Source: Dehalococcoidia bacterium
GTDB lineage: Bacteria > Chloroflexota > Dehalococcoidia > Plut-88900
DNA: 64,000 bases
Direction of reading: 5' to 3'
Assembly (NCBI GenBank): GCA_965197645.1
Contig: OZ240219.1
Coordinates: 1,856,001 to 1,920,000, forward strand
The notes below the pieces were generated by a model. The model made no database searches. It worked only from the letters and a program-made list of their open reading frames with translations, and was not told the origin of the DNA. The position numbers and the translations under genes are program-made. Positions 28,601 through 54,145 of the stretch are shown here, in pieces; position 1 is the stretch's first letter; each line of letters opens with the position of its first letter.

Positions 28601-29706
28601 CGGGCCGCCTTGAGCAATGGAGCAGCCTCGGATGCAAACAGGCCGCCGTTGTAGGGCGGCAGACCGATGGACTCGTCGCCCTCGTCGATTTGGCGGAACA
28701 GCGTCATCAGGTGGTCGTAGTAGCTGGAGGCGCTGGCAGAGAAGACGCCGCCGCCTTGCATCCTGTGCGCCACGTGGTCGCGGACCGGCTTCCGCAAACC
28801 GTAGTCTTCGTACCGCTGATCGTTCACAGGAAGCAGTCCCCGGTCCTCGGCGTAGAGCACGAAGAGCAGCCGGTAGAGAAGGATAAGGGCTGCGTGGCGG
28901 ACGCGTGACAGATCTTCGTCGGTGGCGTCGGCCAGGGCTTGGACCAGCTTGGGAAAGACCCTCTCGAATACAACGCTGGATAGGTCCTGCGCCACCTTCT
29001 CCTCGTACCGCCTCCCGCGAGCCAGCGCCGCTTCCAGGAAGCTGGTCGTGTCCCCCTGGTGCGGGGTGAAGGAGTCGCGACGGAACAGCAGGTAGAAGAG
29101 GCGGAGCCCGTCTTCGCCGCCGGACTCCAGCGTCTCTCCGAGGTCGGCCTCGAAGTAGCCTGTGGCGCGTGGGCGGGAGCGGTAGTCATAGAGACGCCAC
29201 AGGCCGCCGTTGGTCAGGAATCCCCACCGGATTCGGCTCTCCGACTCGATATCAGCCGTCGAGAGGTATCGGAGAATTTGGCCGTGGGGCGTCCTCGATT
29301 GGCGTCCTTTTTCCCTATCGCGGGCGTCAAGAGAGAGACCGAACCTCTTGCTCTCCTCCACCACGATGGCGTCCCTGAATCGTTCATCAGGGTTGGCCCT
29401 CCCGGCGGCGCGCTCCTTGGATACGGCATCGGTGAAGAGGAGATAGTCGGGTATGTCCTCGTTGCGGGTTGTTCCCTGCTGGGGAAGGTAGTCGGCCCAT
29501 CCCAGGAGTTTCAGGATCGGGCGAATCAGCTCTTGCTCGGTGACGGCCTCGTTGGGGCCTTCGGAGCTGCTCAGCGCACCGTAGCTTTGACGAACGCCAT
29601 GACGAAATGCGGCAAATGCCGTCGAGTCCGAGATGGACGTGCGCCACTCGGTGGTCGCCCTTATGCCTTCGGTCAGGAAGTAGTTGGTGAACAGATTGCC
29701 TGGCAT
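25666..29706 (-). CDS. Type IIG-like fused restriction endonuclease/N6-adenine methyltransferase
   Basis: PD..EsK nuclease motif, LTNG.LWRLY, YNGGLF, LGSIYE.LL, RKDSGSFFTP, DPAMGSGHFL, GNPPW, C-terminal TRD. Confidence 0.9.
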   Translation of the reverse strand: MPGNLFTNYFLTEGIRATTEWRTSISDSTAFAAFRHGVRQSYGALSSSEGPNEAVTEQELIRPILKLLGWADYLPQQGTTRNEDIPDYLLFTDAVSKERAAGRANPDERFRDAIVVEESKRFGLSLDARDREKGRQSRTPHGQILRYLSTADIESESRIRWGFLTNGGLWRLYDYRSRPRATGYFEADLGETLESGGEDGLRLFYLLFRRDSFTPHQGDTTSFLEAALARGRRYEEKVAQDLSSVVFERVFPKLVQALADATDEDLSRVRHAALILLYRLLFVLYAEDRGLLPVNDQRYEDYGLRKPVRDHVAHRMQGGGVFSASASSYYDHLMTLFRQIDEGDESIGLPPYNGGLFASEAAPLLKAARLTDKIVGDIIYDLSHTETEGTRHFVNYRDMSVQQLGSIYERLLEREPVRDGSGGIAVRPNSYARKDSGSFFTPQELVDLIVDRTLKPLAEERLKVFEDKSKELSGDHRPIAVRNAELLELDPAEAVLNLKVLDPAMGSGHFLVTAVDFLSDYIAEIAEYAPAVPDWLDGEYSSPLVERVAAIRRDILQRAQASDWVMDETQLTDQAIIRRMVLKRCIYGVDKNPLTVELAKVSLWLHSFTVGAPLSFLDHHLRCGDSLVGLRVPEATRELNRLGGLFASSAIAGAEAAAAGMQRIEEMSDADVAEVRESAELFRGVEDTTADLRGLLDFLCGLRWLTSDMKGKARAALEVPLVETLGGRPNEAYSLLARGPDVFGEGETGGDTSWAGFKELWSDARHVADREGFLHWEAAFPGVWQRWQQEQPVGGFDAVMGNPPWDRIKLQEVEWFATRSPELALAPTAAARKTGIQQLRDKGASLADEFDAAKERADKLGELIRASGNYPLLSGGDINLYSLFVERAMGLVKPDGIVGLLTPSGIYADKTAADFFKSVSTSGRVSGLFDFENRRLGTGLPHFFPDVDSRFKFCALVLGGAERRFQETECAFFLHDTETISNPGHCFPLAPSDFVLVNPNTGTAPIFRTRRDAEITRRIYERHPVLVDRSRGEERKAWPVRYVRMFDMTNDSHLFRTAAQLESAGFYPVEGNRWKKGAEMYLPLYQGRMIHQFDHRVSSVRVNPENTHNPYLSEEVTETQHADPSFLPQTQYWVPADNVETALSKSRGYALGFRDIARPTDVRTVIASIVPWAGYGNKVPLFVGSDGIVAASLVANLNSICLDFVARQKIQGANLNWYIVEQLPIIAPDDYDQRFGDNTARDLVRDHVLRLTYTAHDMAPFARDLGYDGPPFTWDEEERRHLRARLDALYFHLYGLSREDAGYVLDTFPIVRQQDEAQFGSYRTRALILAYMNALAAGDVDTVVSV

Positions 29707-29735: not shown

Positions 29736-30092
29736 TCACTCCAGTAGGACACTGATCTTCTCCAGCGCCTCCCCAACAACCTGCCGCGGGGCCTGGCTCT
29801 CGAAACGGGCGCGTCTCGCCCGCCAGTCCAGGCTCTTGACCTGGTCGGCCAGCACAACTCCCGAGACGCTGCTTGTCGCGGGGAGGAGTACTTCAAACGG
29901 GTATCCCTTGACTCTTGACGTGATCGGACAGAAGAGCGCTAGGCTGGTCTTCGCGTTGTAATCTTCCGGGCTCAGGGTCAGAGCAGGCCGGTGGCCAGCC
30001 TGTTCATGCCCAGCCTGTTCATGCCCAGCCTGGGGCGCAAAGCTGAGCCACACGATGTCTCCCCTTGCGGGAACATACTCCCGGTCTACCAT
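29736..30092 (-). CDS. mazF: MazF/PemK endoribonuclease toxin with 5-aa internal duplication
   Basis: RGDIVWLSF.PQAGHEQ(AGHEQ)AGHRPALTLS..YN, CPITS..KGYPFEV, DQVKSLDW.AR. Confidence 0.92.
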   Translation of the reverse strand: MVDREYVPARGDIVWLSFAPQAGHEQAGHEQAGHRPALTLSPEDYNAKTSLALFCPITSRVKGYPFEVLLPATSSVSGVVLADQVKSLDWRARRARFESQAPRQVVGEALEKISVLLE

Positions 30093-30325
30093 ATTTCGTT
30101 GCCCTGGGCCGGACCGGAGTCCTGCTCGGAATGAAGATTGTCATGGCTCATCTGGGCCAGCATGCCGGCCAGGTCATAGGACCTCTTGCGCATTACGACT
30201 TGGTCGCCCCGAGGAACAATCTCTATGGCTGACCCTTCCTGGACACCCCACTGCTCGGCGATGGGTTTGGGAATCCGGACGGCCAAGCTCGTGCCCCACT
30301 TGGAGACATGCGACTTTGCACCCAT
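30086..30325 (-). CDS. mazE: MazE/AbrB antitoxin
   Basis: KWGTSLAVRIPK, YDL..ML, G.AQGNEIW; overlaps mazF start; RBS GGAGG. Confidence 0.9.
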   Translation of the reverse strand: MGAKSHVSKWGTSLAVRIPKPIAEQWGVQEGSAIEIVPRGDQVVMRKRSYDLAGMLAQMSHDNLHSEQDSGPAQGNEIW

Positions 30326-30451
30326 ATGAGCACCTCCTCTAATATACATATTATATATCATGGTCGAGTGTCCATGCCAGACCGCAATCCGCCAAATCCT
30401 TGGATGCTGCCGGATATTGAGCGATAGAGAGAGTAGCACTGCTTCTGGTCC

Positions 30452-30604
30452 AACGCTTCGCGCCGTCTCAGGCCTGGACGTCCAGATACGTTTGAGGACT
30501 TCCAGTACGGCGGCCCGGTTATGCGACGCTTTCTCGCGAGCTCTGGCTAGTCTTACCGATGGATATCCCCCCAGCCCGATATCGCGACGGCGTCCGTCGA
30601 TGGC
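30452..30604 (-). pseudogene. Internally deleted relic of P4-like integrase
   Basis: IDGRRRDIGLGGYPSVRLARAREKAS.NRAAV fused to LEVLKRIWTSRPETAR; both match the intact integrase at 44532. Confidence 0.85.
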
Positions 30605-30644
30605 ATTAGGCAATGAGCCGTAGATATGAGATCGGAAGGGTAGT

Positions 30645-30735
<91 letters not shown>

Positions 30736-30927
30736 CCGATGTGGCTTCTCCCAATACTATAGGATACGGCACACGCCTTCGGCAATCGTAGCGGGGTGCT
30801 GAGACAGGCTCGGTACTCGCCCCATCCCATGCCGGTTTTCCCTCCCACTCACCGCGGATTGCATCCACACACTCCCACCCCTCGGAGTTCGTATCATGCG
30901 GGGCACTTTGGGACAGGTTCGGGAGGG

Positions 30928-31878
30928 CTACTTCTCCGGTTCCTCGTCCTCCTGTACGGGCGGCGCCTGAGTAATCTTCACCTTTCTTACCCGGCGTCCC
31001 GTTGTGGACAGCACGGATATGCGGAACCCGTCTTCCTGAATCTCGTCACCCGGGTTCGGGATCTTTCCAAGACGGGCCAGTATGAACCCGCCGATGGTAT
31101 CGAAGTCCTGGCCCTCTATCCCTAGGGAAAACCTATCGTTCAGCTGATCTACCCCCACGCTCCCGTCCATGACCACCTCGGTGGGGCTGACCGTCTCTAT
31201 CTGGGTACGGCCCACGTCGAACTCGTCCTCGATCTCCCCAACTATCTCTTCCATCAGGTCCTCGAGGCTGACCAACCCCGCAACGCCGCCGTACTCATCT
31301 ACGACCACGGCCATGTGCACTCGTCTCACTCGAAACTCCTGGAGAAGCTCGTCTATCCGCTTCGTCTCAGGTATGAAATGGGTTTCCCTGGCCAGCTCCC
31401 GAAGCTCCACCTGGGGGCTTCTTTCGCCCCACAGCCGCAACAGGTCCTTGGCATAGATGACCCCGATAATGTTGTCTATGGTCTCCTCGTAGATCGGGAT
31501 GCGACTGAATCCGTGAGTAATGATTGTTCGGACCACGTCCGATAGTGGACTGGCAGCATCGATGGCGATGATATCGGTGCGGGGTACCATGATCTCCCTG
31601 GCGACGGTCTCGTCCAGCCTGGTGATGGACCGGACCATCTGGCTCTCCTCCTCTTCCAGGACCTCCTGTACCCCCTCGGCGTGGACCAGTATGGTGGACT
31701 GGCCGTTGGACGGCTGCGGTTTCCGCCTGAAGATCAAAGCTACCAGCTTGGCCCGGAAACCCCTGGCTTGTACAGAGCCGTTTGGTTTCGGAGGTTCAAG
31801 CCCCTCTTCGGGTTCCGAAGTAGATTCATGGCTCCCGAAACGTAGAAATCTGGTTACCGGTCCGAAAGTCAACTTCAT
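30928..31878 (-). CDS. CBS + CorC/HlyC domain protein
   Basis: AREIMVPRTD, HGFSRIPIY, MAVVVDEYGGVAGLVSLEDL.EEIVGEIEDEFD, DTIGG. Confidence 0.9.
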   Translation of the reverse strand: MKLTFGPVTRFLRFGSHESTSEPEEGLEPPKPNGSVQARGFRAKLVALIFRRKPQPSNGQSTILVHAEGVQEVLEEEESQMVRSITRLDETVAREIMVPRTDIIAIDAASPLSDVVRTIITHGFSRIPIYEETIDNIIGVIYAKDLLRLWGERSPQVELRELARETHFIPETKRIDELLQEFRVRRVHMAVVVDEYGGVAGLVSLEDLMEEIVGEIEDEFDVGRTQIETVSPTEVVMDGSVGVDQLNDRFSLGIEGQDFDTIGGFILARLGKIPNPGDEIQEDGFRISVLSTTGRRVRKVKITQAPPVQEDEEPEK

Positions 31879-33257
31879 GTTATCGTCTGATGTTCCTCTT
31901 CCCGGGAGTGTCCGTCTAGCTTCTTCATAACTCTTGCCGGCACCCCTGCGACCTGAGTGTCGGGTGGAACGTCGTGGGTGACTACGGCCCCTGCTCCGGT
32001 GACAGCCCGAGCACCTATGACTATCGGGGCCACCAGCATCGAGTCACATCCGATGAATGCGCCATCTTCTATGGTGGTTGGGTTCTTTCTGACGCCATCG
32101 TAATTGCAAGTGACGGTACCGGCGCCGATGTTCACGTTGGCTCCCAACGCAGCATCCCCCAGATAGGTAAAGTGTCCCACCCGAGTGCCCCGCCCCAGAC
32201 GGCTTTTCTTCACCTCTACGTAGTTCCCCAGGTGGACTCCGGACTCCAGATGAGAGCCCGGCCTTACATGGCTGTAGGGCCCGACATCGACGTTCTTCTC
32301 CAGGGTGCTGGCCTCGATCACCGATGCCCTGATCCGGCACCCATCGCCCATCACCGAATCAGTGACGATGCTATGGGGACCAATCTCGCATCCTTGTGCT
32401 ATTCGGCTCTTGCCGCCGATGCTGGTGCCCGGATGGACCACGGTATCTATGTCAATCTCCACGTCAGTATCGATGTAGACAGTGCCGGGGTCGGGGAGAG
32501 TGACCCCCTCCCGCATCCATCGCTCACGATTACGCTGATAAACAATCCGAGAGGCGCTAGCCAGGTCCAACCTATCGTTGACGCCGATAGCTTCTTCCGG
32601 CTCGTTCGGCCTGGTGCTCTCAACCCTCTGACCTTCGCCCGAGGCTATAGCCACCAGGTCCGTCAGGTAGTACTCCCCAGAGGCGTGGGGTTCGAGCCGA
32701 CTGAGGACCGGCCACAACCAGGAGGCCTGCAGGCAGTAGGCCCCGGCACAGAACTCCCGGATAGCCAGCTGTTCAGAGGTCGCGTCCCGCTCTTCGATAA
32801 TCTCGGAGATCGAGCTGTCACCGTCCCTGACTACCCGACCTAACCCGTCGGGATGCTCGGTTTCAGACGTCAGGACGGTGACGACAGCCTCGGTGGCCAG
32901 GTGGTGCTCCATCATCTTACCGAGGGTCTCGCTGGTGATGAGTGGCTGATCGCCGTTTACGACTAGTACGGAGTCAACTACCTGCTCGAGGAGGGGTTGC
33001 GACTGTACCAAGGCGTCTCCCGTACCCCTGGCCTCTGCCTGTGTGACCAGCGAGACCCCGTTGCCGACCCTATCGCGGATGGCGGAGGAATTGGGCCCGA
33101 CTATCACAAGCGATTTCCGAGGCTCGGTCTGGCCAATTGCATCCAAGACGTAGCGTAGCATCTCTTTGCCCGCGATGGGATGCAACACCTTCGGAATCTT
33201 GGAGCGCATGCGCCTTCCCAGACCGGCTGCCAGGACCACGCTGCCCCAGCCTGTCAT
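31875..33257 (-). CDS. glmU: Bifunctional UDP-GlcNAc pyrophosphorylase/glucosamine-1-P acetyltransferase
   Basis: VLAAGLGRRMRSKIPKVLH, GTGDA, EYYLTD, hexapeptide repeats, NYDG; RBS AGGAGG before ATG 33257. Confidence 0.96.
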   Translation of the reverse strand: MTGWGSVVLAAGLGRRMRSKIPKVLHPIAGKEMLRYVLDAIGQTEPRKSLVIVGPNSSAIRDRVGNGVSLVTQAEARGTGDALVQSQPLLEQVVDSVLVVNGDQPLITSETLGKMMEHHLATEAVVTVLTSETEHPDGLGRVVRDGDSSISEIIEERDATSEQLAIREFCAGAYCLQASWLWPVLSRLEPHASGEYYLTDLVAIASGEGQRVESTRPNEPEEAIGVNDRLDLASASRIVYQRNRERWMREGVTLPDPGTVYIDTDVEIDIDTVVHPGTSIGGKSRIAQGCEIGPHSIVTDSVMGDGCRIRASVIEASTLEKNVDVGPYSHVRPGSHLESGVHLGNYVEVKKSRLGRGTRVGHFTYLGDAALGANVNIGAGTVTCNYDGVRKNPTTIEDGAFIGCDSMLVAPIVIGARAVTGAGAVVTHDVPPDTQVAGVPARVMKKLDGHSREEEHQTIT

Positions 33258-33274
33258 AGACCTCCTAAGCAAAG

Positions 33275-33319
33275 GAGCCCACTGCCCTTCGAGACATGGC
33301 TCGATTGGGCGGCGGGCTC
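33275..33319 (-). terminator. Long GC-rich hairpin just upstream of glmU RBS (attenuator-like)
   Basis: GAGCCCGCCGCCC..TCGAG..CTCGA.GGGCAGTGGGCTC followed by CTTT; TTGACA promoter ~100 bp further upstream. Confidence 0.45.
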
Positions 33320-33600
33320 ACTAGTTCCTATATACGAGTGGCGGTGAGCTACTATCGTCGGGATCGCTAGGTTCACTCATCGTCTATCCACAATCCATAT
33401 TAAATCCGGTATGAGACTACTGTCAAGGACGCCTGATATTCTAGCCGCCAGTAAGTCGTTTCTTCTTTGCCGCCGGTAAGCCAGCGTGCTATACTCGGCC
33501 GGATGAGTCCGACCGGGCAAATCCTTCATTTCTAGCGTCACATCGCAGCCGCTTCCGTTGACCCGCTCCATTATTTCCTGAATACGACTGAGGTACGCGC

Positions 33601-34908
33601 TTGTTTTTTGCAGGTGGAGAAGGAGGCATAACCGAGGTTGTAACGCTGCTGATCTTCCAGCTGGCAGTGATTCTAATTCTCGCCAAGCTGGGCGGTGAGC
33701 TGTTTACACGCTATCTGAAGCTACCGGCCGTCATCGGCGAGCTTCTCATCGGTGTGGTTATAGGCCCCTTTGCCCTGGGCGATCTGATCGACTTGGGGAC
33801 GATAATCCCGGGCTCCGGTTTGGGAACGCTGTTTCCCAAGCCCGATGTTCCCATCGACGCAATCTCCTCGGAGCTCTTCTCCATTTCCGAGATAGCGGTC
33901 ATAGTCCTGCTTTTCGTGGTCGGGTTGGAGACTGACCTAAAACTGTTCGTCCGCTACTCTCGCCCGGCATCGGTGGTGGCTCTAGGTGGGGTAATCATAC
34001 CCTTCTTCATGGGCGTCTATGCCACCATACTGTTCGGTCATGCCGATAGCCTCGCCAGTCCGCAGGCCTTATTCATGGGGGCTGCCATGACGGCCACCTC
34101 GGTGGGAATTACCGCCAGGGTCCTGAGCGATAGGGGAAAGCTGGGCACTCCCGAAAGCGTGACGGTGCTGGCGGCGGCGGTAATAGACGATGTTCTTGGC
34201 ATTCTGGTCTTGACCCTTGCCGTGGGCGTAGCCGAGACCGGGGAGGTGTCCATCGTAGACGTACTCGCGGTCGGTGGTAAGGCGCTGGCGTTCCTGGCGA
34301 TATGGTTCGGCGGCGGCCTGGTTGTATCCAAGTACATCTCCCGATTCATTCACTCGCTGAGGGGTGTAGGAGCGGGAATCGCCATAGCGCTGGGGCTGGC
34401 TTTTCTCTCTTCGGGACTGGCGGAGAGCTTCGGACTGGCCTTCATTATCGGAGCCTATGCCACCGGTCTGGCCCTTTCCAACACCGACCTTTCCGAAACC
34501 CTGGAAGGACCAATGTCCGCGGTCTACAATGCCCTGGTACCCATCTTCTTCGTGGTGCAGGGTATGCAGGTGGATGTGACGACCTTCAGCCACGCCATCG
34601 TCTTCGGTATAGTACTGAGTGTTCTGGCCATCCTGGGCAAAGTTCTAGGCTCCGGCATCCCGGCGTTGGCCGTGGGGTTCAACAATATCGGGTCGGCGAG
34701 GATCGGGTTCGGCATGTTGCCCCGGGGAGAGGTCGCGCTGATCATTGCCGGCATAGGACTCGCAAAAGGGGTCATAGGGCAAGAGCTGTTCGGGGTGGCC
34801 ATCCTCATGACCATTGTCACCACCCTCATAGCCCCTGTTGTGCTGGTCTTTCTATTCCAGCGTGAGACATCCGGCCTGCGTACGAGACCGAGGGTTTCCT
34901 CGGATTGA
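33601..34908 (+). CDS. Cation:proton antiporter (CPA2, NapA-like)
   Basis: GELLIGVVIGP, LLFVVGLETD, ATSVGIT, AAVIDD, GMLPRGEVALI. Confidence 0.92.
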   Translation: MFFAGGEGGITEVVTLLIFQLAVILILAKLGGELFTRYLKLPAVIGELLIGVVIGPFALGDLIDLGTIIPGSGLGTLFPKPDVPIDAISSELFSISEIAVIVLLFVVGLETDLKLFVRYSRPASVVALGGVIIPFFMGVYATILFGHADSLASPQALFMGAAMTATSVGITARVLSDRGKLGTPESVTVLAAAVIDDVLGILVLTLAVGVAETGEVSIVDVLAVGGKALAFLAIWFGGGLVVSKYISRFIHSLRGVGAGIAIALGLAFLSSGLAESFGLAFIIGAYATGLALSNTDLSETLEGPMSAVYNALVPIFFVVQGMQVDVTTFSHAIVFGIVLSVLAILGKVLGSGIPALAVGFNNIGSARIGFGMLPRGEVALIIAGIGLAKGVIGQELFGVAILMTIVTTLIAPVVLVFLFQRETSGLRTRPRVSSD

Positions 34909-35103
34909 CACCTACAGGCCGCCCCTCGAAGGGAGTGTGCCGCTGGCTTCTCTTAACCTTCTCGGAGGGATCAAGTCTAGGATCCAGGCAAGACTAATAC
35001 CGGGACCAGCCTGTTGTTCCTGGGTACGGGTCTGTTGGGCCCGGGAGAGCAGGGGTAGCGTTCCGGCGCTTTGAAGCCGTAGAATAGGGTCGGTTAGTCA
35101 AAC

Positions 35104-35178
35104 GCCCCCGTAGCTCAGAGGATAGAGCGCCAGCCTCCGGAGCTGGAAGCGTGGGTTCGAGTCCCGCCGGGGGTACCA
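35104..35178 (+). tRNA. tRNA-Arg(CCG)
   Basis: GCCCCCGTAGCTCAGAGGATAGAGCG CCAGCCT-CCG-GAGCTGG...GGTTCGAGTCC...ACCA. Confidence 0.95.
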
Positions 35179-35373
35179 CTCCTTGACCGTATTGCCACCA
35201 CTTCCAAAGTCACGTAAAACCGCAAGAGGACTGAGCATGGGAACGGAGGGGTAGGACTCGGGTGCTGGTAGATGAGAGCAGATAGCGCATAAGCGGTGAA
35301 TTGCCGGATTCACTCCACACCACGACCCACGTCAACACGGGCGGTGCGCCAATCGACTCTTGGAGGATAGACC

Positions 35374-37470
35374 ATGCATGAAGTGAAATCGATTCAGAAC
35401 CTGTTGGATGAGATTGGGCACGGAGAAATTCTGGTGCCAGAGTTCCAGCGCGGCTATGTCTGGAACCGGGACCAGGTTCGTGGACTAATGCAGGCCCTAT
35501 ATCTCAAGCACCCTACAGGGCATCTGTTGACTTGGCGCACCTACAAGCCATCGCTAGTACGAGGTACTCAGTCTCCACGAAACGGCCACTCCATACTGCT
35601 TCTGGATGGACAGCAGCGTCTTACGACGCTTTACGTGCTGTTCGAGGGAAGAGCACCGTTGTTCTATGAGGGCGAGTCCCTGTACTTCGACCTGCACTTT
35701 AATATGCAGACGGAGGAGTTTCGCTTCTATCAGAAATCGCGAATGGCGAACGACCCGACATGGATCGGCGTGCACGAGTTTCTCCGGCATGGGCTGACAA
35801 AGACACTGGAGAAGATCGATCAACTGGACGAGAATCGGCGGGCTGTCATCCAGCAGAATTTGGCCCGGTTAAGTCGTCTGGATGCGATCCGAAACTACAC
35901 ATATACGGTCGACCAAGTAGCTGGTGACGAATACACCGTAGATCAGGTCGTGAGTATCTTTAACCGGGTCAACAGCCAAGGTACGCCTCTCACGAAGGCG
36001 GACCTCGCCCTTGCACATGTCTGCAGCATCTGGCCGGAGGCGCGGGAGGAGTTGCGAACATTCAGCCTGAAGATGGCAGGTGTGGGATTCGATGTCAATC
36101 TCAGTTTCTTAGTCCGGTGCATGGCGGGCGTGGCCACGGGATCTATCGTGCTCGAGGGCACCTTCATGAGAACGCCAGCGGAAGAGCTCCAGAGCGCTTG
36201 GCAGGAGATGCAGCCAGCTTTCGAACATCTGGTTGGAGTACTCCGGCACGAAGCGTACATCGGCAGTCTGTCAGACCTGACTACGGACAATGTCCTGGTC
36301 CCCGTTACGATTTATCTGGCCCGACACAACGGGACATTCCCGAGCGAAACCGTCAAGCGAAGGTTTATTCGATGGCTCTGTCTGGCCGGACTGTGGGCGC
36401 GGTACTCAGGAGCCACCGAAACCAAGCTCCAGCAAGACGTGGCACTGGTAGCCGGCAGCGATCCAGACCCGACGCACGAGCTGGAAGCGGCAATCATTCG
36501 AGAGCGTGGCCGGGTAGCCCTAGAAGAGGGTGACTTGGACCGGGCTCGCATCAACTCATCTGTTGCACTTCTCAGTCAGGTCGTGGCGCGAGCGCGAGGT
36601 GCCCGTGACTGGTTTACTAGCATCCAGATCTATGATCCAGCAGTCGGCAAGAGTCATGGCGGCGAACGTCACTACATTTTCCCGAAGACATTGTTGAAGA
36701 GAGCAGGGATTACTGACTCAACCAGAATCAACGCGGTCGCTAACCGGGCGATCCTTGGGCAGAACCCATCTCTAGCGGATCGCCGGTCGTCGCCTGTCGA
36801 TTATCTGCCCAAAGTCGAAGGGGATGCACTTAGGGCTCAGTCCGTGCCGATGGCATCTGAGCTATGGGAACCGGAGCGGTTTCTAGAATTTCTCACGGCC
36901 CGGCGACGTCTGCTGGCAAAGGCCATGAACGAATTCATCGAAAGTTGGATTTCAAAGATTGACTCAGAGACGATTAGTGAACATGATGTTCGCCGTCTCA
37001 TGGCTTGTGGCGAAAACGAGAGGGTGGAGTTCAAGTCAAGCCTCCGCTGGGCCGTAAATGAAGAAAGGGTCAATAAAGCGCTTGAAGCTGTAACGATCAA
37101 AACGCTGGCGGGTTTCCTCAACTCAGAGGGAGGTACTCTTCTGATAGGCGTTGATGACAGCGGACGTGCGGTTGGACTTGCCGAGGACTACAAGACTCTT
37201 AAGGGACAAAGCCGTGACGCGTTCGAGCAACACTTGCAGCATATCGTGGCGAGTAATCTAGGGGAGGCCCTGTCGGTATCCTACATGACGGTCAACTTCC
37301 ACGAGATTGATGGTAAGGACATCTGTCAGGTTGCCGTCGATACCAGCGATGAGCCGGTCTATGTAGAGAACGCCAGCCAACCACTGTTCTACGTGAGGAA
37401 CGGGAACCTGACTCAGCCACTCCCGGTAGATGAGACTGTGAAGTACGTGCAGCGACATTGGGGGCTATGA
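35374..37470 (+). CDS. GmrSD-like (DUF262 + degenerate HNH) protein fused to Schlafen/AlbA_2 domain
   Basis: PEFQRGYVW, LDGQQRLTT, F.RVNSQG.PL; HYIFP..NAVAN; ENERVEFKSS..AGFLNSEGGTLLIGVDD..FYVRNGN. Confidence 0.85.
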   Translation: MHEVKSIQNLLDEIGHGEILVPEFQRGYVWNRDQVRGLMQALYLKHPTGHLLTWRTYKPSLVRGTQSPRNGHSILLLDGQQRLTTLYVLFEGRAPLFYEGESLYFDLHFNMQTEEFRFYQKSRMANDPTWIGVHEFLRHGLTKTLEKIDQLDENRRAVIQQNLARLSRLDAIRNYTYTVDQVAGDEYTVDQVVSIFNRVNSQGTPLTKADLALAHVCSIWPEAREELRTFSLKMAGVGFDVNLSFLVRCMAGVATGSIVLEGTFMRTPAEELQSAWQEMQPAFEHLVGVLRHEAYIGSLSDLTTDNVLVPVTIYLARHNGTFPSETVKRRFIRWLCLAGLWARYSGATETKLQQDVALVAGSDPDPTHELEAAIIRERGRVALEEGDLDRARINSSVALLSQVVARARGARDWFTSIQIYDPAVGKSHGGERHYIFPKTLLKRAGITDSTRINAVANRAILGQNPSLADRRSSPVDYLPKVEGDALRAQSVPMASELWEPERFLEFLTARRRLLAKAMNEFIESWISKIDSETISEHDVRRLMACGENERVEFKSSLRWAVNEERVNKALEAVTIKTLAGFLNSEGGTLLIGVDDSGRAVGLAEDYKTLKGQSRDAFEQHLQHIVASNLGEALSVSYMTVNFHEIDGKDICQVAVDTSDEPVYVENASQPLFYVRNGNLTQPLPVDETVKYVQRHWGL

Positions 37471-37483
37471 ATCCGCAAGGGAC

Positions 37484-37549
37484 TCCGCGGTAATAGTCGC
37501 CACGGTGACCGACGTGTGCGGCTTTCTGCTCTTCCTGGGTGTGGCCACC
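37484..37549 (+). pseudogene. Last transmembrane helix of an MgtE-type Mg2+ transporter (relic)
   Basis: SAVIVATVTDVCGFLLFLGVAT resembles the MgtE C-terminal TTxTDxxGF motif. Confidence 0.55.
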
Positions 37550-37717
37550 CCGGTATTCACCGCCCTGCACTTTGTTCCAGGTGGGTTCGCCGAAGTGCTT
37601 CTGGGCGCCAGTGCGAACCCCGAGGTCATTGACCACATGAATGTGAAGTTTGGCACCGACTGATGCCGTCGCTGTATAATCCCATCACTTTAGGGGAAGC
37701 TACACTAGGAGTCGATC

Positions 37718-38134
37718 GTGACAGCAGAAGTGAGGGAGCAAACCGGCCAGATTAGAAACGTGAACGTACGTTGGGCGCATGTTGTTGTCGAAGGACACAC
37801 CGTGGAGCAGGTCCTGTCCTTCGACGTTGCTGAAGCAGAGGCGGTGTATGGACGGCCCTTTGATGACGAAATGGACAAGCATATCCAAATGGGTATGTTC
37901 GCCATAGACCGTATAGCTGCCTCTGAAACAATGCATAAGGTCGCGTCTGCAACCAGCTATGTCCTCGATGGCGAGTGCATGAGGACCGCTAAGATAGTGC
38001 ATTGCAAGGACATCGAGCCAGCGGAGATGCACATAGTCCAACGGGACGGACGCGAGGTACACCAGGACCCTTGGAGTTGTGTTCCCGGAACAGCGCCAAT
38101 AGACCACAGAAAGCTGACAGCTCTTGACAGATAG
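37718..38134 (+). CDS. Hypothetical protein
   Basis: 138-aa ORF, RBS AGGAG, upstream TATAAT. Confidence 0.6.
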   Translation: MTAEVREQTGQIRNVNVRWAHVVVEGHTVEQVLSFDVAEAEAVYGRPFDDEMDKHIQMGMFAIDRIAASETMHKVASATSYVLDGECMRTAKIVHCKDIEPAEMHIVQRDGREVHQDPWSCVPGTAPIDHRKLTALDR

Positions 38135-38341
38135 AGAAGAAAGATCTGTCGCGGTGAGTGTCCAGCGAAGTCCAGGCTAGAAGGAGCTAGGACGGACTCT
38201 CGAGGAGAGGAGGCAGCGGATTCAACCCGAATCGGCTGGACCCGGTGCGTCAGCTCCTTCGAAACAAACCACTCTCTCTTGTGCCTCGTGGTAATATGGG
38301 TAATCAAAGTCCACCCCCTCCAGCAAGAAGGGAGCAACGGT

Positions 38342-39484
38342 ATGGGCGCTAGCAAGGTTGTCGACGCCGACGGACACATCATGGAGCCTTCCGACCTGTG
38401 GGAGAAGAACCTGGAGCCCGAGTACCGAGACCGAGCGATACGCATAAGGAAGGACACCAACGGCGCCGAGTACCTGGAAATAGAAGGCAAGAGGTCCGCA
38501 GTGGTGCACGGCGGCGGACTGGCTACCTTCGGCAGCTTGGACGCCAGCACCAAGCCTCTCTACGAAGCCAGTGAAAAGGTGGGAGGCCTGGACTACGAGG
38601 AGGGCGTACCAGGCGGCGCTAGGGACTTCGATGTCCGGCTCAAGTGGATGGATGAGCACGGCATCGACATCGCCCTTACCTATCCCTCCCTCTTTCTAAG
38701 CTGGCAGGACGAGACCCGGGACCCCGCCCTTGCGGCTGCCTACTGCCGGACCTATAACACCTGGTTGACCGACCTGACCCGGCCCTATTCAGACCGCATC
38801 GTCGCCATTGCTCACGTGGCCCTCCACGACATAGAGGAGGCGGTGGTCGAGGTGAACAGGGCAGCCAAGCTGGGCGCCAAGGGTCTCTACCTTTTCCCAA
38901 CAACCCCAGTAGATGACATTCCCTACGGGGACCGCCACTACGATCCCTTCTGGGCCGCTTGCCAGGACCTGGGCCTGCCGCTGGGCATTCACGTCAGCAA
39001 CACTCCCAAGCACGCCGGGCATCGGCTCTACCCGGCCACATTCGATACCAACGTCTGGTGGCTCAACCTGATGTATAACCAGGACTGCCAGGCAGCTTTC
39101 ACATCCTTCTTCCACGGCGGTGTCTTAGAGCGATTCCCGGAACTGAGCGTAGGGGTGGTGGAGACCGGGTGCGGCTGGATAGCTCACTGGGTCGAGTTCA
39201 TGGACTCCAAGTACGGTATGGGGGGGCACCCGGAGATGAAGCTGCGGCCCAGCGAGTACTTCGACCGCCAGTGCTGGATCACCGGTGAAGCCGACGAGAA
39301 GACGTTCCCGTTCATGGCCCAGCTCGTGGGCGCCCACAAGCTGATGTTCGGCTCGGACTATCCCCACGAGGAGGGTCACGAGGAGCCGCTCACCGAGCTG
39401 AAGGAGACGATCAGAACCCTATCGGAAGAGGACCAGGACAAGATACTCGGCGGTAACGCCATGAGAATCTACAATCTCAACTAA
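38342..39484 (+). CDS. Amidohydrolase_2 family, close paralogue of 12711-13850
   Basis: DADGHIMEPSDLWEKNLEP, GIHVSNTPKHAGH, FGSDYPHEEGHEEPL. Confidence 0.9.
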   Translation: MGASKVVDADGHIMEPSDLWEKNLEPEYRDRAIRIRKDTNGAEYLEIEGKRSAVVHGGGLATFGSLDASTKPLYEASEKVGGLDYEEGVPGGARDFDVRLKWMDEHGIDIALTYPSLFLSWQDETRDPALAAAYCRTYNTWLTDLTRPYSDRIVAIAHVALHDIEEAVVEVNRAAKLGAKGLYLFPTTPVDDIPYGDRHYDPFWAACQDLGLPLGIHVSNTPKHAGHRLYPATFDTNVWWLNLMYNQDCQAAFTSFFHGGVLERFPELSVGVVETGCGWIAHWVEFMDSKYGMGGHPEMKLRPSEYFDRQCWITGEADEKTFPFMAQLVGAHKLMFGSDYPHEEGHEEPLTELKETIRTLSEEDQDKILGGNAMRIYNLN

Positions 39485-39573
39485 GCTCTGAACGCCCCGC
39501 GGTATAGCCCGCATCTCCAAGCCGCATCGCGAAGAGCCTCACTATTTCCTGTCACCTGAAAGGGGTCGATGCT

Positions 39574-40728
39574 ATGGAAGTCAAGATCGTCGACGCGGAT
39601 TCCCACGTCCTCGAGCCTTCCGAGCTTTGGGAAGAGAACCTGGAACCTGAGTTCAGGGACCGGGCCATACGGCTCGGTAAAGACGAAGGGGGTCTGGAGT
39701 CCTTTTACATCAACGGCAAGAAATCGCTGATGCTCAGGGACGGGACTCTGGGCACGGTCGCCGCTGTCGGGCAATCGCACAAGGAGATGAGGGAGCGGTT
39801 CCTCAAGGCCGGAGTGATAGGCTACGAGGAAGGCAGGGCGATCGCCTCCGGCTCCAAAGACCCAGACGAGCGCATCCGCGTGATGGACTCGGAAAACACC
39901 GATATTACCTTTCTCTACCCCACCGTCGGTCTGAGCTGGGAGGTGCTGTGCGAAGACCCGGAGCTGTCTGCCGCATGCTGCAGGGTCTACAACGACTGGC
40001 TCGCCGATTTCTGCAACGCCCATCCGGAGCGTCTGAAAGGCATTTCCCACGTCCCGATGATAGATGCCGCCGAGGCTGCGAAGGAGTTGGACAGGGCCGC
40101 CGCAAAAGGACTGAAAGGGGTGTTCTTCACCATCTGGCCCCCTTCGGAAAGGACCTTCGGTGATAAGTATTATGATCCCCTCTGGTCCGTTGCCCTCGAT
40201 GCCAAGATAGGGGTGTCGCTGCACGTGTTCAACAGTTCGAAAACGGTCACGTCACACCAGCGGCCGGACTACTTCGCGGAACCGCTTTTCGAGGACTGGA
40301 CGTCCGGTGTCATGTTCAACGTAGACGTCATCAAGGCCTACACCACCGTGGTGGCCGGAGGGACTATGGACCGGTTCCCGGACCTCAACTTCGTCATGCT
40401 GGAGGTGGGATGCGGCTGGGTGCCCTACTGGCTCGATAGGATGGACAGTGCCTACGAAGCTGCGCCGTGGAATGCGCCGATGAAGCTAAAGCCCAGCGAG
40501 TATTTCTTCCGCCAGTGCTTCGTGACCATGGAGCCGGAGGAGCGGACCGTAGCCGCCACCGCTGGGCTGATAGGCTCCGATAAGATCCTGTGGGCGTCGG
40601 ACTACCCCCACTCGGAAGGGCACGTGGGTACCGTGGCCGAGGTCAAAGAGAAGATAGCGCCGCTATCGGAAGAGGACCAGGCGAACATACTTGGCAACAA
40701 CGCCTTCCGGCTGTACGACATCGGCTGA
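39574..40728 (+). CDS. Amidohydrolase_2 family
   Basis: DADSHVLEP, YPT, YNDW, EVGCGW, WASDYPH. Confidence 0.9.
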   Translation: MEVKIVDADSHVLEPSELWEENLEPEFRDRAIRLGKDEGGLESFYINGKKSLMLRDGTLGTVAAVGQSHKEMRERFLKAGVIGYEEGRAIASGSKDPDERIRVMDSENTDITFLYPTVGLSWEVLCEDPELSAACCRVYNDWLADFCNAHPERLKGISHVPMIDAAEAAKELDRAAAKGLKGVFFTIWPPSERTFGDKYYDPLWSVALDAKIGVSLHVFNSSKTVTSHQRPDYFAEPLFEDWTSGVMFNVDVIKAYTTVVAGGTMDRFPDLNFVMLEVGCGWVPYWLDRMDSAYEAAPWNAPMKLKPSEYFFRQCFVTMEPEERTVAATAGLIGSDKILWASDYPHSEGHVGTVAEVKEKIAPLSEEDQANILGNNAFRLYDIG

Positions 40729-40738
40729 GGCGAGGCCG

Positions 40739-41506
40739 TCATCCGTCGATTATCGCCGTGACTGGATCGCCGATGGACACAACGCCCGGGTTCTCGACCA
40801 CCCCGTATACCCCGAAGTAGGCCTCCTTGTCAGGTCTGTAGCTGAGGATAGCGCGCAATGTGTCCGCGTCCCGCTTTCCCGTATCGGGATCGTGGGTGGT
40901 GATGGCGCATCTGGGGTCTCGATAGGCCACCCGCACGCGGAGATCATTGCCGATCTGGACCATGTTCCAGACCCATTCGTCCTCCTCGTGGGGCCGGCAG
41001 CCTCCGATGAGAAAGTTGGGTCGGAACCGCCTGTTGTCCAGGGTCTTGGTGATGCCGGGCTGGCGGCTGAGCTCTTCTATCGATGCCTGGGTCAGAATCG
41101 AAACGGGAAACTCATCGAAGGCCTGGCCCGGCTTGTCGGTGATCACCAGCTTGACACGGCGGTTGCAGAAGTCGGACAGGGCATCGTTCCAGTTTCCCAA
41201 AACGACGTTCCCCGATACGTCCCGGCCGAATACATCGACCGTTGCCGCTTCGCCCCGTTCCGGCACTCCCCTAAGCGTGGGCGAGTCGGGAATGGACAGC
41301 GCCAACTCCTCAGTCGCAGCATCATATTCCGCCTTGACCTGCACCAGCCTGCCGATCTGCCGTTGGGTGACGAGCTTACCCCGGTTGCTCATAAGCAAGA
41401 AACGCCGGTCTTCCAGGATGCCCTCGGACCCTACGTGCACCCGCTGCGGATGACTGAGCCCGAAGGACTTGACCGGCGAAATGTTGATGGCTTCGACTGT
41501 TGGCAT
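40739..41506 (-). CDS. MOSC domain protein
   Basis: ISPVKS, DRRF, RRFRPNF, EDEW, PRCAITT.DPDTG, FGVY. Confidence 0.9.
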   Translation of the reverse strand: MPTVEAINISPVKSFGLSHPQRVHVGSEGILEDRRFLLMSNRGKLVTQRQIGRLVQVKAEYDAATEELALSIPDSPTLRGVPERGEAATVDVFGRDVSGNVVLGNWNDALSDFCNRRVKLVITDKPGQAFDEFPVSILTQASIEELSRQPGITKTLDNRRFRPNFLIGGCRPHEEDEWVWNMVQIGNDLRVRVAYRDPRCAITTHDPDTGKRDADTLRAILSYRPDKEAYFGVYGVVENPGVVSIGDPVTAIIDG

Positions 41507-41659
41507 GGGACCGTCCTGTCTAGGGATTAGCCCACATACGGTAGGCCAACAGACGGGACTATGTCAATCTAGCTTGCGGCTCTAGATTCAAGCTGGTACC
41601 ATTTCATCGTTCTTCCAGAAATCCCAGGCGTCCTTCCACAAACGCTAGGAGGTGGCCCA

Positions 41660-42829
41660 GTGAGATTTGCATTCACTTCGGAGCAGGAAGCATTCAGAGA
41701 AGAGGTCAAGGAGTTCATTCGCACCGAGCTGCCCGATGGCTACGAGGATGCGGTGGGCGGCACGGATGAGTGGTGGGAGAACGAGACCACCACCCGAAAG
41801 AAGCTGGCCGACAAGGGTTGGCTGACCATGGCCTGGCCCCAGGAATATGGGGGCTTGGACGCGCCCATCATGCAGCAGGTGGTCTTCAACGACGAGTGGG
41901 CCTACGCCCACGCTCCCGGCTGGGACGGCGAGGGCATAGGGTACATTGGGCCTGCCATAATGGTCCATGGCACCGAAGACCAGAAGAAGACGCACATCGG
42001 CGGAATCGCTCGGGGTGAGGTGGTCTGGTGCCAGGGGTACTCGGAACCGGAAGCGGGCTCGGACCTGGCTTCGCTGCAGACCCGAGCCGTGGACAAGGGC
42101 GACCACTACGTGATCAACGGGCAGAAGATATGGACCAGCCAGGCCCACTACGCCGACTGGATCCTACTCCTTGCCCGGACCGATCCTGATGCTCCCAAGC
42201 ATCGGGGGATCTCCATGTTCCTCGCCGACATGAAAGACCCGGGCGTAGAAGTGCGCCCCATCATCAACATGACGGGCTCCCATGAGTTCAACGAGACCTT
42301 CTTCAACGATCTGAAAGTCCCCAAGGAGAACGTTGTCGGAGAGGTCAACCGGGGCTGGTACGCCGGTATGACGTTGCTGGACTTCGAACGGTCCGGTGTC
42401 GAATACGCCGCCCACAGCCGTAGAGTACTGGACGACACGATTCAATACGCCCGGGAGACCAAGTCCAACGGCGAGGCCCTGATCGAGCTACCCGGCGTGC
42501 GAAACAAGCTTTCCGAAATGGCCGTGGAAGTGGAAGTCTCCTACATGCTTTCGTACCAGATAGCGTACCTGCAGGGAAAGGGAGACGTGCCCAACAAAGA
42601 GGCTTCGATGGGCAAGCTGTTCGGCAGCGAGGTCCAGCAGCGGGCATCCAAGATATCCATGGATATCCTCGGTCTGTACGGTCAGCTGCGCGGCGATTCG
42701 GCGCCTCTCAAAGGGGCTGCGCCCGATCGGTACATGGGCACCGTGTCCTCCACGATAGCGGCGGGTACGTCGGAGATACAGCGGGGAATCATCGCTGGCC
42801 GGGGGCTTGGGCTGCCGCGAGGCACTTAG
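41660..42829 (+). CDS. Acyl-CoA dehydrogenase family protein
   Basis: WCQGYSEPEAGSDLASL, NGQKIWTS, FNETFF, AGTSEIQR. Confidence 0.93.
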   Translation: MRFAFTSEQEAFREEVKEFIRTELPDGYEDAVGGTDEWWENETTTRKKLADKGWLTMAWPQEYGGLDAPIMQQVVFNDEWAYAHAPGWDGEGIGYIGPAIMVHGTEDQKKTHIGGIARGEVVWCQGYSEPEAGSDLASLQTRAVDKGDHYVINGQKIWTSQAHYADWILLLARTDPDAPKHRGISMFLADMKDPGVEVRPIINMTGSHEFNETFFNDLKVPKENVVGEVNRGWYAGMTLLDFERSGVEYAAHSRRVLDDTIQYARETKSNGEALIELPGVRNKLSEMAVEVEVSYMLSYQIAYLQGKGDVPNKEASMGKLFGSEVQQRASKISMDILGLYGQLRGDSAPLKGAAPDRYMGTVSSTIAAGTSEIQRGIIAGRGLGLPRGT

Positions 42830-42849
42830 GTTCAACATAAGGAGTTGAA

Positions 42850-42885
42850 AAAGGGGGGCGTGCGGCCGGCCGCACGCCCCCCTTT
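42850..42885. terminator. Bidirectional terminator (perfect 36-bp palindrome)
   Basis: AAAGGGGGGCGTGCGGCCGGCCGCACGCCCCCCTTT between convergent genes. Confidence 0.8.
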
Positions 42886-42898
42886 ACGTTTGTCCAGG

Positions 42899-44173
42899 TC
42901 AGCTGGCCGCCTTGCCTATCGCACGGTGACCCAAGCCCACCCTGTTCCATCGCCCCGGCAGCATCAGAGCGCACACCGTAAGGCTTAGAGCGGAGAGACA
43001 GGTGACTGTGAGCGCCAAACGCAGGTCGTCGGTGGCGCTCTGTATCGATCCTGACAGGACCGGCCCTATCACGCCGCCCGCTGTCATCGTCGTCCTGAGA
43101 AAGGCCAGCGCCACCGCCGTTTCTCTGGGTCTTATGCCGGATAGCTCGAAGGGGATGCTTAGGACTATCGGGAAGAATGCGAAGGACAGGCCTTGACCGA
43201 TGGACATGAGGATGAGCAGGCTGAAATTACCGGTGTACACCAGTCCCAACGCCGTTCCCGCTACCGCCAGCCCGGAAACCGCCAATATCAGCTTCCTTTG
43301 TCCTATCCTTGCGACCAAAAATCCCAGTGCAACGGCACATGGAGCGGAGACGGCTGTGCTTAAGGCAAACAGGGCTGCAGAAGCGGTCAACGAGATGTCG
43401 TAGGTGTCCAACATGTAGCTGGGCCAGAAGGTGCTGAACGCCGAGAATCTCATCTCGATTCCCACTACCCCCAACCCCACCAGCCACAGCTCCTTGTATT
43501 TGAGTATGCTGCTTATGGGGCTGCTGCCCTGTTGGGAATCGAGCTCGCTGGTGTACTCCTCGGTAACGCGCTCGCGGCCGATTGCCACCCAGAGGAGAGT
43601 CAACACAAAACAGATGACGGCGAGCAGGTAAAAGGTAGCCCTCCAGCTATCATCCAACAGTCCCAGTATCAACGGCATGAGGATGAAAAGCCCCGCTCCG
43701 ATGCCAAACAGGATATGTAACGAGGCATTGGCCAGCATTATCTCTTTCGGCTTCATCCACTGCTTGATCAACAACGCCCTGGCAGGTTCCCGGCTCACCA
43801 CCGTCAGGCCGTAGATAAGCCGAGCCAGCAACAGCAATCCGAAGAAGGGAGCAGCTGCCTGAAACAGCATTATCAGGGTACCGGCCAGCAGGGTTACCGT
43901 GGTCAAGGGTTTGGGTCGGAACCGGGAAAACAGCCACCCGGAAGGGATCGCTATCAGCAGAATCCCAACTTTGGGAGCGGAACCCAACCAGCCTTCCTGG
44001 ATTGGTGACAAACCCATGTCCTCTCTCATGCTGGGAAGAAAGATTCCCAGGGTCTCGATGAGTATGATGCCCCACATGTGAGCGCCCATCCAGGTAATGA
44101 TCACCACCCACCGGTAGGCCGAGGCTGGAGTCGCCGAGTCCATAGTCGCAGTCTGGCGCATAGCAGGCATCAT
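42899..44173 (-). CDS. MFS transporter
   Basis: ~12 hydrophobic helices, G...SRFRPK and ARIGQRK loop motifs. Confidence 0.85.
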   Translation of the reverse strand: MMPAMRQTATMDSATPASAYRWVVIITWMGAHMWGIILIETLGIFLPSMREDMGLSPIQEGWLGSAPKVGILLIAIPSGWLFSRFRPKPLTTVTLLAGTLIMLFQAAAPFFGLLLLARLIYGLTVVSREPARALLIKQWMKPKEIMLANASLHILFGIGAGLFILMPLILGLLDDSWRATFYLLAVICFVLTLLWVAIGRERVTEEYTSELDSQQGSSPISSILKYKELWLVGLGVVGIEMRFSAFSTFWPSYMLDTYDISLTASAALFALSTAVSAPCAVALGFLVARIGQRKLILAVSGLAVAGTALGLVYTGNFSLLILMSIGQGLSFAFFPIVLSIPFELSGIRPRETAVALAFLRTTMTAGGVIGPVLSGSIQSATDDLRLALTVTCLSALSLTVCALMLPGRWNRVGLGHRAIGKAAS

Positions 44174-44283
44174 ACTACCCGGCTGGGGGGATTGTTAATG
44201 TAAATGGGTCTCGGCGCCCAGGGTAACGGCGTGGGCGTAATAGACAGACAATGATGCCTGGGATATGATGTTTAGAGGCCTTA

Positions 44284-44375
<92 letters not shown>

Positions 44376-44531
44376 ACTACCCTTCCGACCCCGTCTTCTG
44401 TTGTCCCGTACTGCCCCTAGTTCATAGCTAAACAGCGTCGATCTATGCTCATTCAAGCCTTATGATTCCCCTGCTATCCAGCGTCAAATGTGGTAAAATA
44501 TGTGGGAAGACTTTTTGCAGAGGACGACCTT

Positions 44532-51286: not shown

Positions 51287-51327
51287 AGCATACCTTTCGA
51301 TCAATACAGATAGGGAGGACATCGCGG

Positions 51328-54133: not shown

Positions 54134-54145
54134 ATGCTCTTCTCC

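Follow-up and report, generated by a model that had tools for sequence, protein, structure and literature searches.

The question raised by this locus is whether a protein assembled like a type IV restriction enzyme, and joined to a Schlafen domain, would defend its host by cutting DNA or by cutting RNA. The gene in question lies at positions 35374–37470, on the + strand, of a 64,000-nucleotide (nt) stretch of contig OZ240219.1 from a Dehalococcoidia bacterium (GenBank assembly GCA_965197645.1, positions 1,856,001–1,920,000; the whole stretch is referred to here as the window). It encodes a protein of 698 aa (P0001) from an ATG start and, judging from the list of open reading frames (ORFs) and the translation, is a real gene. 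The initial annotation of this DNA had described a GmrSD-like sensor with an apparently dead HNH region fused to an intact-looking Schlafen domain, and proposed a single-gene defence in which sensing of modified DNA triggers RNA cleavage rather than DNA restriction. Our comparisons lead us, with moderate confidence, to a stand-alone anti-phage protein of the BrxU/HEC-05 branch of the GmrSD-like proteins with a putative C-terminal Schlafen nuclease. The homologies, residue states, conservation, purifying selection and defence-operon context of the homologues were observed directly. The parts of the gene to which we refer are as follows.

35374–37470, + strand: the whole gene, a BrxU/HEC-05-like core plus a Schlafen domain (ORF list, PF03235 and PF04326, PADLOC HEC-05, full-length homologues of 65–87 % identity).
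35362–35367, + strand: Shine–Dalgarno-like GGAGGA, 6 nt upstream of the ATG (seen in the sequence itself).
35392–36021, + strand: DUF262/GmrSD_N, a ParB/Srx-like nucleoside triphosphatase (NTPase) domain, residues 7–216 (Pfam PF03235, E value 7.5e-30; aligned to the BrxU N-domain).
35494–35496, + strand: codon 41, GCC (Ala), at the position of BrxU Ser42 in the RLFDS motif (sequence, hhalign register).
36022–36573, + strand: linker or middle region, residues 217–400, homologous to the BrxU linker (hhalign continuous over query 5–517).
36574–36948, + strand: degenerate DUF1524-like His-Me (HNH) region, residues ~401–525 (hhalign to BrxU residues up to 570).
36664–36684, + strand: ERHYIFP, residues 431–437, with H433 at BrxU D474 and Y434 at the catalytic H475 of BrxU (sequence, hhalign).
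36730–36747, + strand: N453-A-V-A-N457-R458, matching BrxU N505...N509 (hhalign, conservation).
36778–36780, + strand: codon 469 (Asp), in the column of the distal Asn (Asn in 82/106 of the representatives defined below).
37012–37422, + strand: Schlafen/AlbA_2 domain, residues 547–683 (Pfam PF04326, E value 9.2e-18, profile 1–117 of 118).
37012–37035, + strand: catalytic motif E547-x4-E552-x-K554, reading ENERVEFK (sequence; 115/115 per residue).
37147–37158, + strand: GVDD, residues 592–595, aligned with the GVDD of SLFN11 and SLFN14 (sequence, profile alignment).

The N-terminal DUF262 domain retains the motifs to which the initial annotation had drawn attention, namely PEFQRGY (Q25, R26), DGQQR (residues 78–82) and FNRVN (residues 196–200). 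Among 115 close full-length homologues (identity of at least 65 %), QR, DGQQR and FNRVN are invariant or nearly so, with D78, Q80, Q81 and R82 each present in 115/115, and the linker (residues 217–400) ranks second in conservation among the parts of the protein. PADLOC returned HEC-05 (PDLC04151; E value 5.5e-41, best stretch residues 70–523 on profile positions 110–594 of 600) and PDC-M55C (E value 2.1e-27, residues 3–538), and the representative of HEC-05 shares 99.2 % identity with BrxU (Payne et al. preprint, 10.1101/2024.01.29.577857). A profile built from 23 homologues (alignment A1) matched BrxU (7P9K) among solved structures at an E value of 1.7e-19. With the brxU sequence taken from pEFER, hhalign of A1 against BrxU gave a probability of 99.06 % and an E value of 1.9e-18 over 485 columns, placing query residues 5–517 on BrxU 6–570 of 587. 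This span indicates that the first ~520 residues correspond to the entire BrxU and that the Schlafen domain is an addition. The alignment paired H433 with D474, Y434 with H475, I435-F436-P437 with I476-Y477-P478, N453 with N505, N457 with N509 and A41 with S42, and set DGQQR against BrxU D98–R102.

Like BrxU, the GmrSD-family type IV restriction enzyme of Escherichia fergusonii pEFER (PDB 7P9K; HEC-05), the 698-aa protein runs in the order DUF262, linker, DUF1524-like region and has an intact DGQQR. Unlike BrxU, to which it is only 25 % identical over the aligned columns, it has Tyr for His475, Asp in the distal-Asn column and Ala for Ser42, and carries an added Schlafen domain of 150 aa. BrxU itself is converted from an interlocked dimer to monomers by NTP binding. 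Pfam gave no GmrSD_C/DUF1524 (PF07510) match in the 698-aa protein; as regards its His-Me fold, the relative P0192 passes PF07510 over the equivalent region (28.4 vs 23 bits), and the ESM Atlas offers no more than a lead, to GmrSD_C and HNH_4 clusters at 0.89–0.92.

At the C-terminus, PF04326 scored 65.3 bits against a cut-off of 25.3, and both motifs singled out by the initial annotation, E..VEFK and GVDD, are present. E547, E552 and K554 are each kept in 115/115 close homologues, and the E-E-K triad can be read in 41/41 of the Schlafen-fused representatives (of 106); within GVDD, D594 is kept in 101/115 and D595 in 93/115 close homologues. The A1 profile aligns weakly to the SLFN14, SLFN11, SLFN12 and Slfn8 chains (E values 0.009–0.024), with ExxxxEFK and GVDD in register. 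The Schlafen catalytic motif has been defined as Ex4(E/D)xK, and the E15A/D20A substitutions in RorSlfn5 killed both defence and tRNA cutting (Perez Taboada et al., PMC13056530). The strict conservation of this motif makes RNA cleavage the likelier output. In this the protein resembles RorSlfn5 and the human SLFN11/13/14 tRNases, whose Ex4(E/D)xK motif and GVDD stretch align with its own and which share the logic of a sensor domain gating a Schlafen RNase. It differs in the sensor, which is an Ig-like domain recognising a T5 tail assembly chaperone in RorSlfn5 and consists of eukaryotic helicase modules in the human proteins, and the sequence similarity is weak (E value ~0.01). An Enterococcus Schlafen protein has been shown to defend against phage (PMC13552941), and Schlafen RNases have been described as backup effectors in BREX (bacteriophage exclusion) and related loci (PMC12839542).

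The state of the His-Me site can be judged against the wider family. An exhaustive homologue search returned 12,411 matches at an E value of ≤0.001. The wide alignment comprised P0001 and 116 representatives of these matches, of at least 480 aa and chosen at 50 % identity; 106 rows in which the His-Me region and at least 420 of 525 core columns were filled were kept, and 11 were dropped as fragments. The usual family motif is [H/D]-H-I-F-P-K ... N-E-I-A-N ... x-N. The atypical ERHYIFP and the missing distal Asn that the initial annotation had reported are both real: Y434 falls on BrxU H475 and D469 stands in a column where 82/106 representatives have Asn, while the nearer N453 and N457 are conserved. 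In BrxU, D474A and H475A abolished phage resistance and DNA digestion and left NTP hydrolysis normal, and N519A weakened resistance in vivo only (PMC8565348).

His434 and the distal Asn come and go together. Both are present in 81/106 representatives and both absent in 20/106; His434 is present without the Asn in four and absent with the Asn retained in one (Fisher p 1e-16). On a FastTree tree of the representatives built without the motif columns, the Asn changed in the same direction in ~9.4 of 12 independent pairs differing in His434 and in the opposite direction in 0 (median p ~0.004), and each residue changes at least 15–16 times. Recurrent loss of both residues together is what an abandoned active site leaves behind, and with Y434 and D469 in place the His-Me nuclease of the 698-aa copy is likely dead. 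Among the 115 close homologues, position 434 is H in 55, Y in 47 and another residue in 13; it changes at least 31 times on the close-clade tree, and column 469 at least 29 times, far above the rest of this 78 %-identical family. The comparison of the two ends reveals an asymmetric constraint, with the Schlafen E-E-K intact while the His-Me site is lost repeatedly. We rejected the broader idea that the whole close clade is nuclease-dead, as the distal column holds His in 66/115 and H434 occurs with H469 in 39/115; the clade is mixed. One homologue, P0186, has a degenerate His-Me motif and a degenerate Schlafen Ex4ExK, and PF04326 still matches it at an E value of 6e-13.

The initial annotation overstated the novelty of this architecture, which is already in print. 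The GmrSD and AlbA_2 combination was noted in a 2017 survey of His-Me proteins (PMC5714182), and 'DUF262.pSlfn' constitutes class pSlfn7, with 109 members (1.8 % of the set) and a defence score of 0.76 (Perez Taboada et al., Nat Microbiol 2026, PMC13056530). Two members were assayed in that study, and one of them, EcoSlfn7, cut T7 plating 538-fold, with log10 reductions in the source data of 2.75 for T7, 1.25 for T5, 1.16 for T4, 1.0 for T2, 0.52 for T3 and 0.41 for T6. The pSlfn7 ORFs fall into two size groups across all 109 rows of Supplementary Table 2 (PMC13056530), 35 of at least 2,100 nt and 74 of 1,746–1,905 nt, and both assayed proteins are short (1,770 and 1,776 nt).

The long group includes Haloquadratum walsbyi WP_014554916.1 (plasmid PL100), a listed pSlfn7 member that is 33 % identical to the 698-aa protein over residues 7–697 (E value 2e-124), matches HEC-05 at 4e-43 in PADLOC and has the same three-part build; unlike the 698-aa protein, it keeps HHIFPK and the distal Asn. 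It is the one long entry of the 35 checked for homology, and the other 34 are assigned to the lineage of the 698-aa protein from length only. EcoSlfn7 (WP_028985442.1) was located via PF04326 within a P2-like prophage in the E. coli UC4224 chromosome; a search of that chromosome with the 698-aa protein found nothing. Pfam finds DUF262 followed by AlbA_2 in both proteins, and EcoSlfn7 is a single-gene defence sited in a mobile defence hotspot of the prophage. However, EcoSlfn7 has 589 aa, shows no significant similarity to the 698-aa protein by BLASTP (best E value 0.084) and aligns with its family by hhalign at a probability of 22 %, over the Schlafen part only. The EcoSlfn7 DUF262 domain is NsnA/PD-T4-2_A-like (PADLOC, residues 6–184) and gives no HEC-05 match, so that EcoSlfn7 lacks a BrxU-like core and a His-Me region. 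EcoSlfn7 is thus probably an independent DUF262–Schlafen fusion, and by sequence the three-part lineage lies inside the published pSlfn7 class, distinct from the validated EcoSlfn7 lineage. The fusion of a BrxU-like core to a Schlafen domain is, in short, catalogued and not new. NCBIfam held no family for the 698-aa protein, EcoSlfn7, BrxU or the archaeal homologue.

Homologues of the gene are widespread. In a word-index search, 119 of the 120 clusters listed carry both domains (65–100 % identity). A scan of species genomes found 553 relatives, the nearest in Dehalococcoidia metagenome-assembled genomes (74–80 % identity) and the next (59–72 %) in Latescibacterota, Acidobacteriota, Spirochaetia, Gemmatimonadota, Myxococcales and others; similarity of this degree between phyla suggests that the gene has spread horizontally. 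Neighbourhoods were compared at 17 loci with full flanks, drawn from 80 kept of the 553 relatives, and PADLOC was run on the larger and nearer 66 of their 125 flank ORFs. The gene adjoins HmaA and/or HmaB in 10/17 loci, with both in eight and HmaC as well in four, and so, like brxU within BREX, its homologues are embedded in larger defence operons. Seven of the 17 loci, including four from Dehalococcoidia, had no PADLOC match among the flank ORFs scanned. Beside two stand-alone Dehalococcoidia homologues we noted a DDE transposase directly upstream (L004:6095–7648) and an IS30-like gene (HTH_38 and rve domains) directly downstream (L005:10764–11774), respectively. A shared mobile cassette was considered and rejected, as the gene resembles its homologues at the DNA level from the ATG to ~37463, near the stop codon, with no shared flanks.

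In the window itself, the gene is preceded by genes for CorC, GlmU and a Na+/H+ exchanger and by a tRNA gene, and is followed by amidohydrolase genes. The tRNA gene, 195 nt upstream of the ATG, is the following.

35104–35178, + strand: tRNA-Arg(CCG), the upstream neighbour, a marker of a variable site and no component of the system (ARAGORN).

The initial annotation was correct in placing the gene beside tRNA-Arg, but the adjacency is incidental. No tRNA adjoins the gene at any of 31 homologous loci, and the tRNA-Pro present at two of them lies over 6.7 kb away. The exchanger gene and tRNA-Arg are kept in 4/4 same-family genomes, with different genes downstream, and the full-length gene was not found in 11 same-family genomes searched (80–94 % complete). 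The gene is thus an accessory gene standing alone where the gene content varies, and tRNA-Arg is a landmark and not a partner. Unlike the Hma-embedded defence genes (Payne et al. preprint), the gene is not nested here between an HmaA helicase and an HmaB methylase; the sole HmaA-like ORF of the window is truncated and lies 14 kb away (51244–52788). No att-like direct repeats of at least 14 nt were found between 35050 and 39000, and a promoter and terminator scan was uninformative (promoter-like, 1 vs 1.4 expected; terminator-like, 3 vs 2.0 expected, all within the ORF). Directly after the gene, the open stretch 37472–37663 (+ strand) resembles fused pieces of membrane-protein genes, by eye only and unconfirmed, and has no Pfam or NCBIfam match; a 138-aa ORF at 37718–38134 has no Pfam match. 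In the relatives L089 and L090, BipA and a DEAD-box helicase bearing a treble-clef zinc finger come after tRNA-Arg, and a helicase of this build lies in the window at 23521–24903 (− strand), 10 kb away on the other side of tRNA-Arg, which suggests local rearrangement at this site.

Taken from these comparisons, the mechanism that we propose would run as follows. The DUF262 NTPase, the linker and a folded, catalytically degenerate His-Me domain would together form an NTP-dependent switch that senses nucleic acid. Upon infection, the switch would free the Schlafen Ex4ExK RNase, which would cut RNA, most likely tRNA, so that translation stops and immunity takes the form of abortive infection or growth arrest; DNA restriction by the His-Me site has probably been lost in the 698-aa copy. 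Its defensive role, the activity of the Schlafen RNase, the RNA target and the trigger are all inferred. The interpretation offered by the initial annotation thus survives in its outline of a single-gene defence with a dead-looking HNH and Schlafen RNA cleavage, for which sequence comparison argues, and fails in its trigger: modified-DNA sensing is unsupported, since EcoSlfn7, of a distant and unrelated lineage and the only DUF262–Schlafen protein for which defence has been shown, is no less effective against the unmodified phages T7 and T5 than against the T-even phages. Modified DNA may be the trigger, as one possibility only.

Several observations weigh against this reading. PADLOC found no match among the ORFs scanned at 30086–45776, and the gene stands without an adjacent defence partner. 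In the Schlafen domain, D595 is replaced by Asn in 21/115 close homologues. As regards published assays, the Enterobacter ludwigii pSlfn7 protein gave about no protection (PMC13056530), both assayed pSlfn7 proteins belong to the short lineage unrelated to the 698-aa protein, and the literature searched contained no published test of a long member. The classical H-N-H pattern (H434 with H469) is present in 39/115 close homologues, and H433 (113/115), F436 (115/115), N453 (114/115), N457 (114/115) and R458 (115/115) are near-invariant, so that some residual or alternative His-Me catalysis may persist. The dead state, defined as either residue missing, is found in 12/41 Schlafen-fused representatives vs 13/65 others (p 0.35) and in 21/73 with any extension vs 4/33 bare cores (p 0.084; independent pairs not significant). 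Finally, Ala41 occupies the position where BrxU S42A abolishes defence (PMC8565348), and the 698-aa copy may be impaired by it.

These figures bear on the claim of the initial annotation that the protein cleaves RNA rather than restricting DNA. The conserved Schlafen motif and the two missing His-Me residues agree with it, but the loss is not statistically tied to the fusion. The stronger version, that the HNH was lost because Schlafen took over, is unsupported: no significant link exists between site loss and fusion, His434 itself being lost in 11/41 Schlafen-fused vs 10/65 other representatives (p 0.21).

Of the other explanations, the one that survives best is that this is an impaired or decaying copy, horizontally acquired, stranded outside its usual Hma operon and inactive via Ala41, Tyr434 and Asp469, which we consider unlikely. 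The initial annotation had missed the change from Ser41 to Ala. Ser occupies this position in 114/115 close homologues, among which Ala41 is unique, and in 97/106 wider representatives, and BrxU S42A lost resistance and DNA digestion while its phosphate release doubled (PMC8565348). The copy also carries three singleton changes (L21V, S41A, G416S) at 231 near-invariant columns, against a mean of 0.92, and the downstream stretch 37472–37663 without a family match and the absence of the full-length gene from the same-family genomes fit decay as well. However, three singletons are within range (the maximum is five, and at least 12 sequences have three or more), Ala is found at the equivalent of position 41 in three other intact representatives, and all 698 codons form an unbroken reading frame behind a good ribosome-binding site. 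All Schlafen and DGQQR residues are intact, and other Dehalococcoidia copies stand alone too. The ratio of non-synonymous to synonymous substitution rates (dN/dS) of the gene is ~0.07–0.08 vs three homologues, with dS saturated. Contigs of run X1, which may be the source sample, match the gene without differences, codons 41 and 434 included.

A dual nuclease, in which the His-Me domain still cuts DNA in a type IV-like manner (with H433 or Tyr434 as the base and Asp469 as a metal ligand) and the Schlafen domain serves as a second or backup effector, is improbable for this copy. It would account for the retention of H433, N453, N457 and R458 and for the dN/dS of 0.09–0.13 in the His-Me region (vs the same three homologues, dS saturated); the fixed residues, F436 included, together with this purifying selection imply that the domain is retained for something. 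The full HH...N site in 29/41 Schlafen-fused representatives makes dual activity plausible for the family at large. Nevertheless, the 698-aa protein has Tyr at the BrxU H475 position, where the Ala mutant is inactive, position 434 flips repeatedly among the close homologues, and His434 and the distal Asn have been lost together in independent lineages, as expected for an abandoned active site. Least probable by our estimate, and very improbable, is that AlbA_2 is a nucleic-acid-binding or regulatory module and that the protein acts without catalysis as a sensor or regulator, for instance serving an adjacent Hma system, since the placement of AlbA_2 in the Alba DNA/RNA-binding superfamily by the 2017 survey (PMC5714182) and the frequent location of the homologous gene inside Hma operons are set against an E-x4-E-x-K present in 115/115 close homologues and needed in RorSlfn5 (PMC13056530), and against this copy and several others that have no Hma partner.

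A single point may deserve further study, namely that BrxU-like proteins have repeatedly lost the His-Me residues together. Altogether, 25/106 representatives lack the His-Me general base and/or the distal metal ligand, by at least 16 separate origins, and both are gone in 20 of these 25. We tentatively suggest, as a possibility that we hold to be somewhat doubtful, that a sizeable share of the BrxU/GmrSD-like 'type IV restriction enzymes' cut no DNA and, with the NTPase and the fold retained, are NTP-gated sensors passing their signal to an appended effector, be it Schlafen or an unannotated C-terminal domain. The clade of the 698-aa protein would then represent a hand-over in progress, in which position 434 flips freely while the Schlafen Ex4ExK is invariant. 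If our reading of the protein is right, this lineage would show how a DNA-restriction enzyme can be turned into the sensor for an RNA-cutting effector. The Schlafen effector domain is also used by human cells against viruses. In practical terms the gain is modest, the fusion being catalogued and a distant analogue validated; the long BrxU-like pSlfn7 proteins make up roughly one third of the class, judged by length, and natural H434/Y434 variants at 80–87 % identity offer ready-made comparison pairs. Six BrxU-like relatives (P0154, P0174, P0198, P0232, P0245 and P0262) combine a degenerate His-Me site with C-terminal extensions of 117–319 aa, which may be unknown effector domains; the Pfam matches of the first four are to GmrSD_N only.

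Other genes reminiscent of defence systems are scattered over the window. Upstream, 5.7 kb from the gene, 25666–29706 (− strand) encodes a 1,346-aa type IIG restriction-modification/DrmMI-like protein (Eco57I and MmeI domains) that adjoins tRNA-Ser(CGA) at 30645–30735. Downstream of an integrase (44490–45776) and tRNA-Ser (44284–44375) lies an AbiEi-like gene (50572–51153, + strand; E value 6.7e-42) beside the truncated Hma helicase (51244–52788, + strand), whose 514-aa ORF matches the N-terminal third of HmaA only (profile 7–412 of 1176, E value 7e-90). The region 53165–55693 (− strand), of low G+C content (0.50–0.53 vs ~0.59 around), encodes an NsnB/HEC-03B/PDC-M55A-like ABC-type ATPase (54146–55693, − strand) and a protein with a MIT_C/PLD-like domain (53165–54133, − strand), and is a candidate two-gene defence module that seems to interrupt the Hma remnant. 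The G+C content between 56000 and 61000 is 0.67–0.73, vs 0.55–0.62 elsewhere in the window. A cyclase of the type found in cyclic-oligonucleotide-based anti-phage signalling systems (CBASS) is encoded at 60909–61754 (PADLOC E value 3.5e-76) and is followed by a 333-aa ORF without a Pfam family (61841–62842) and then by an M78 peptidase/capP-like gene (63154–63732).

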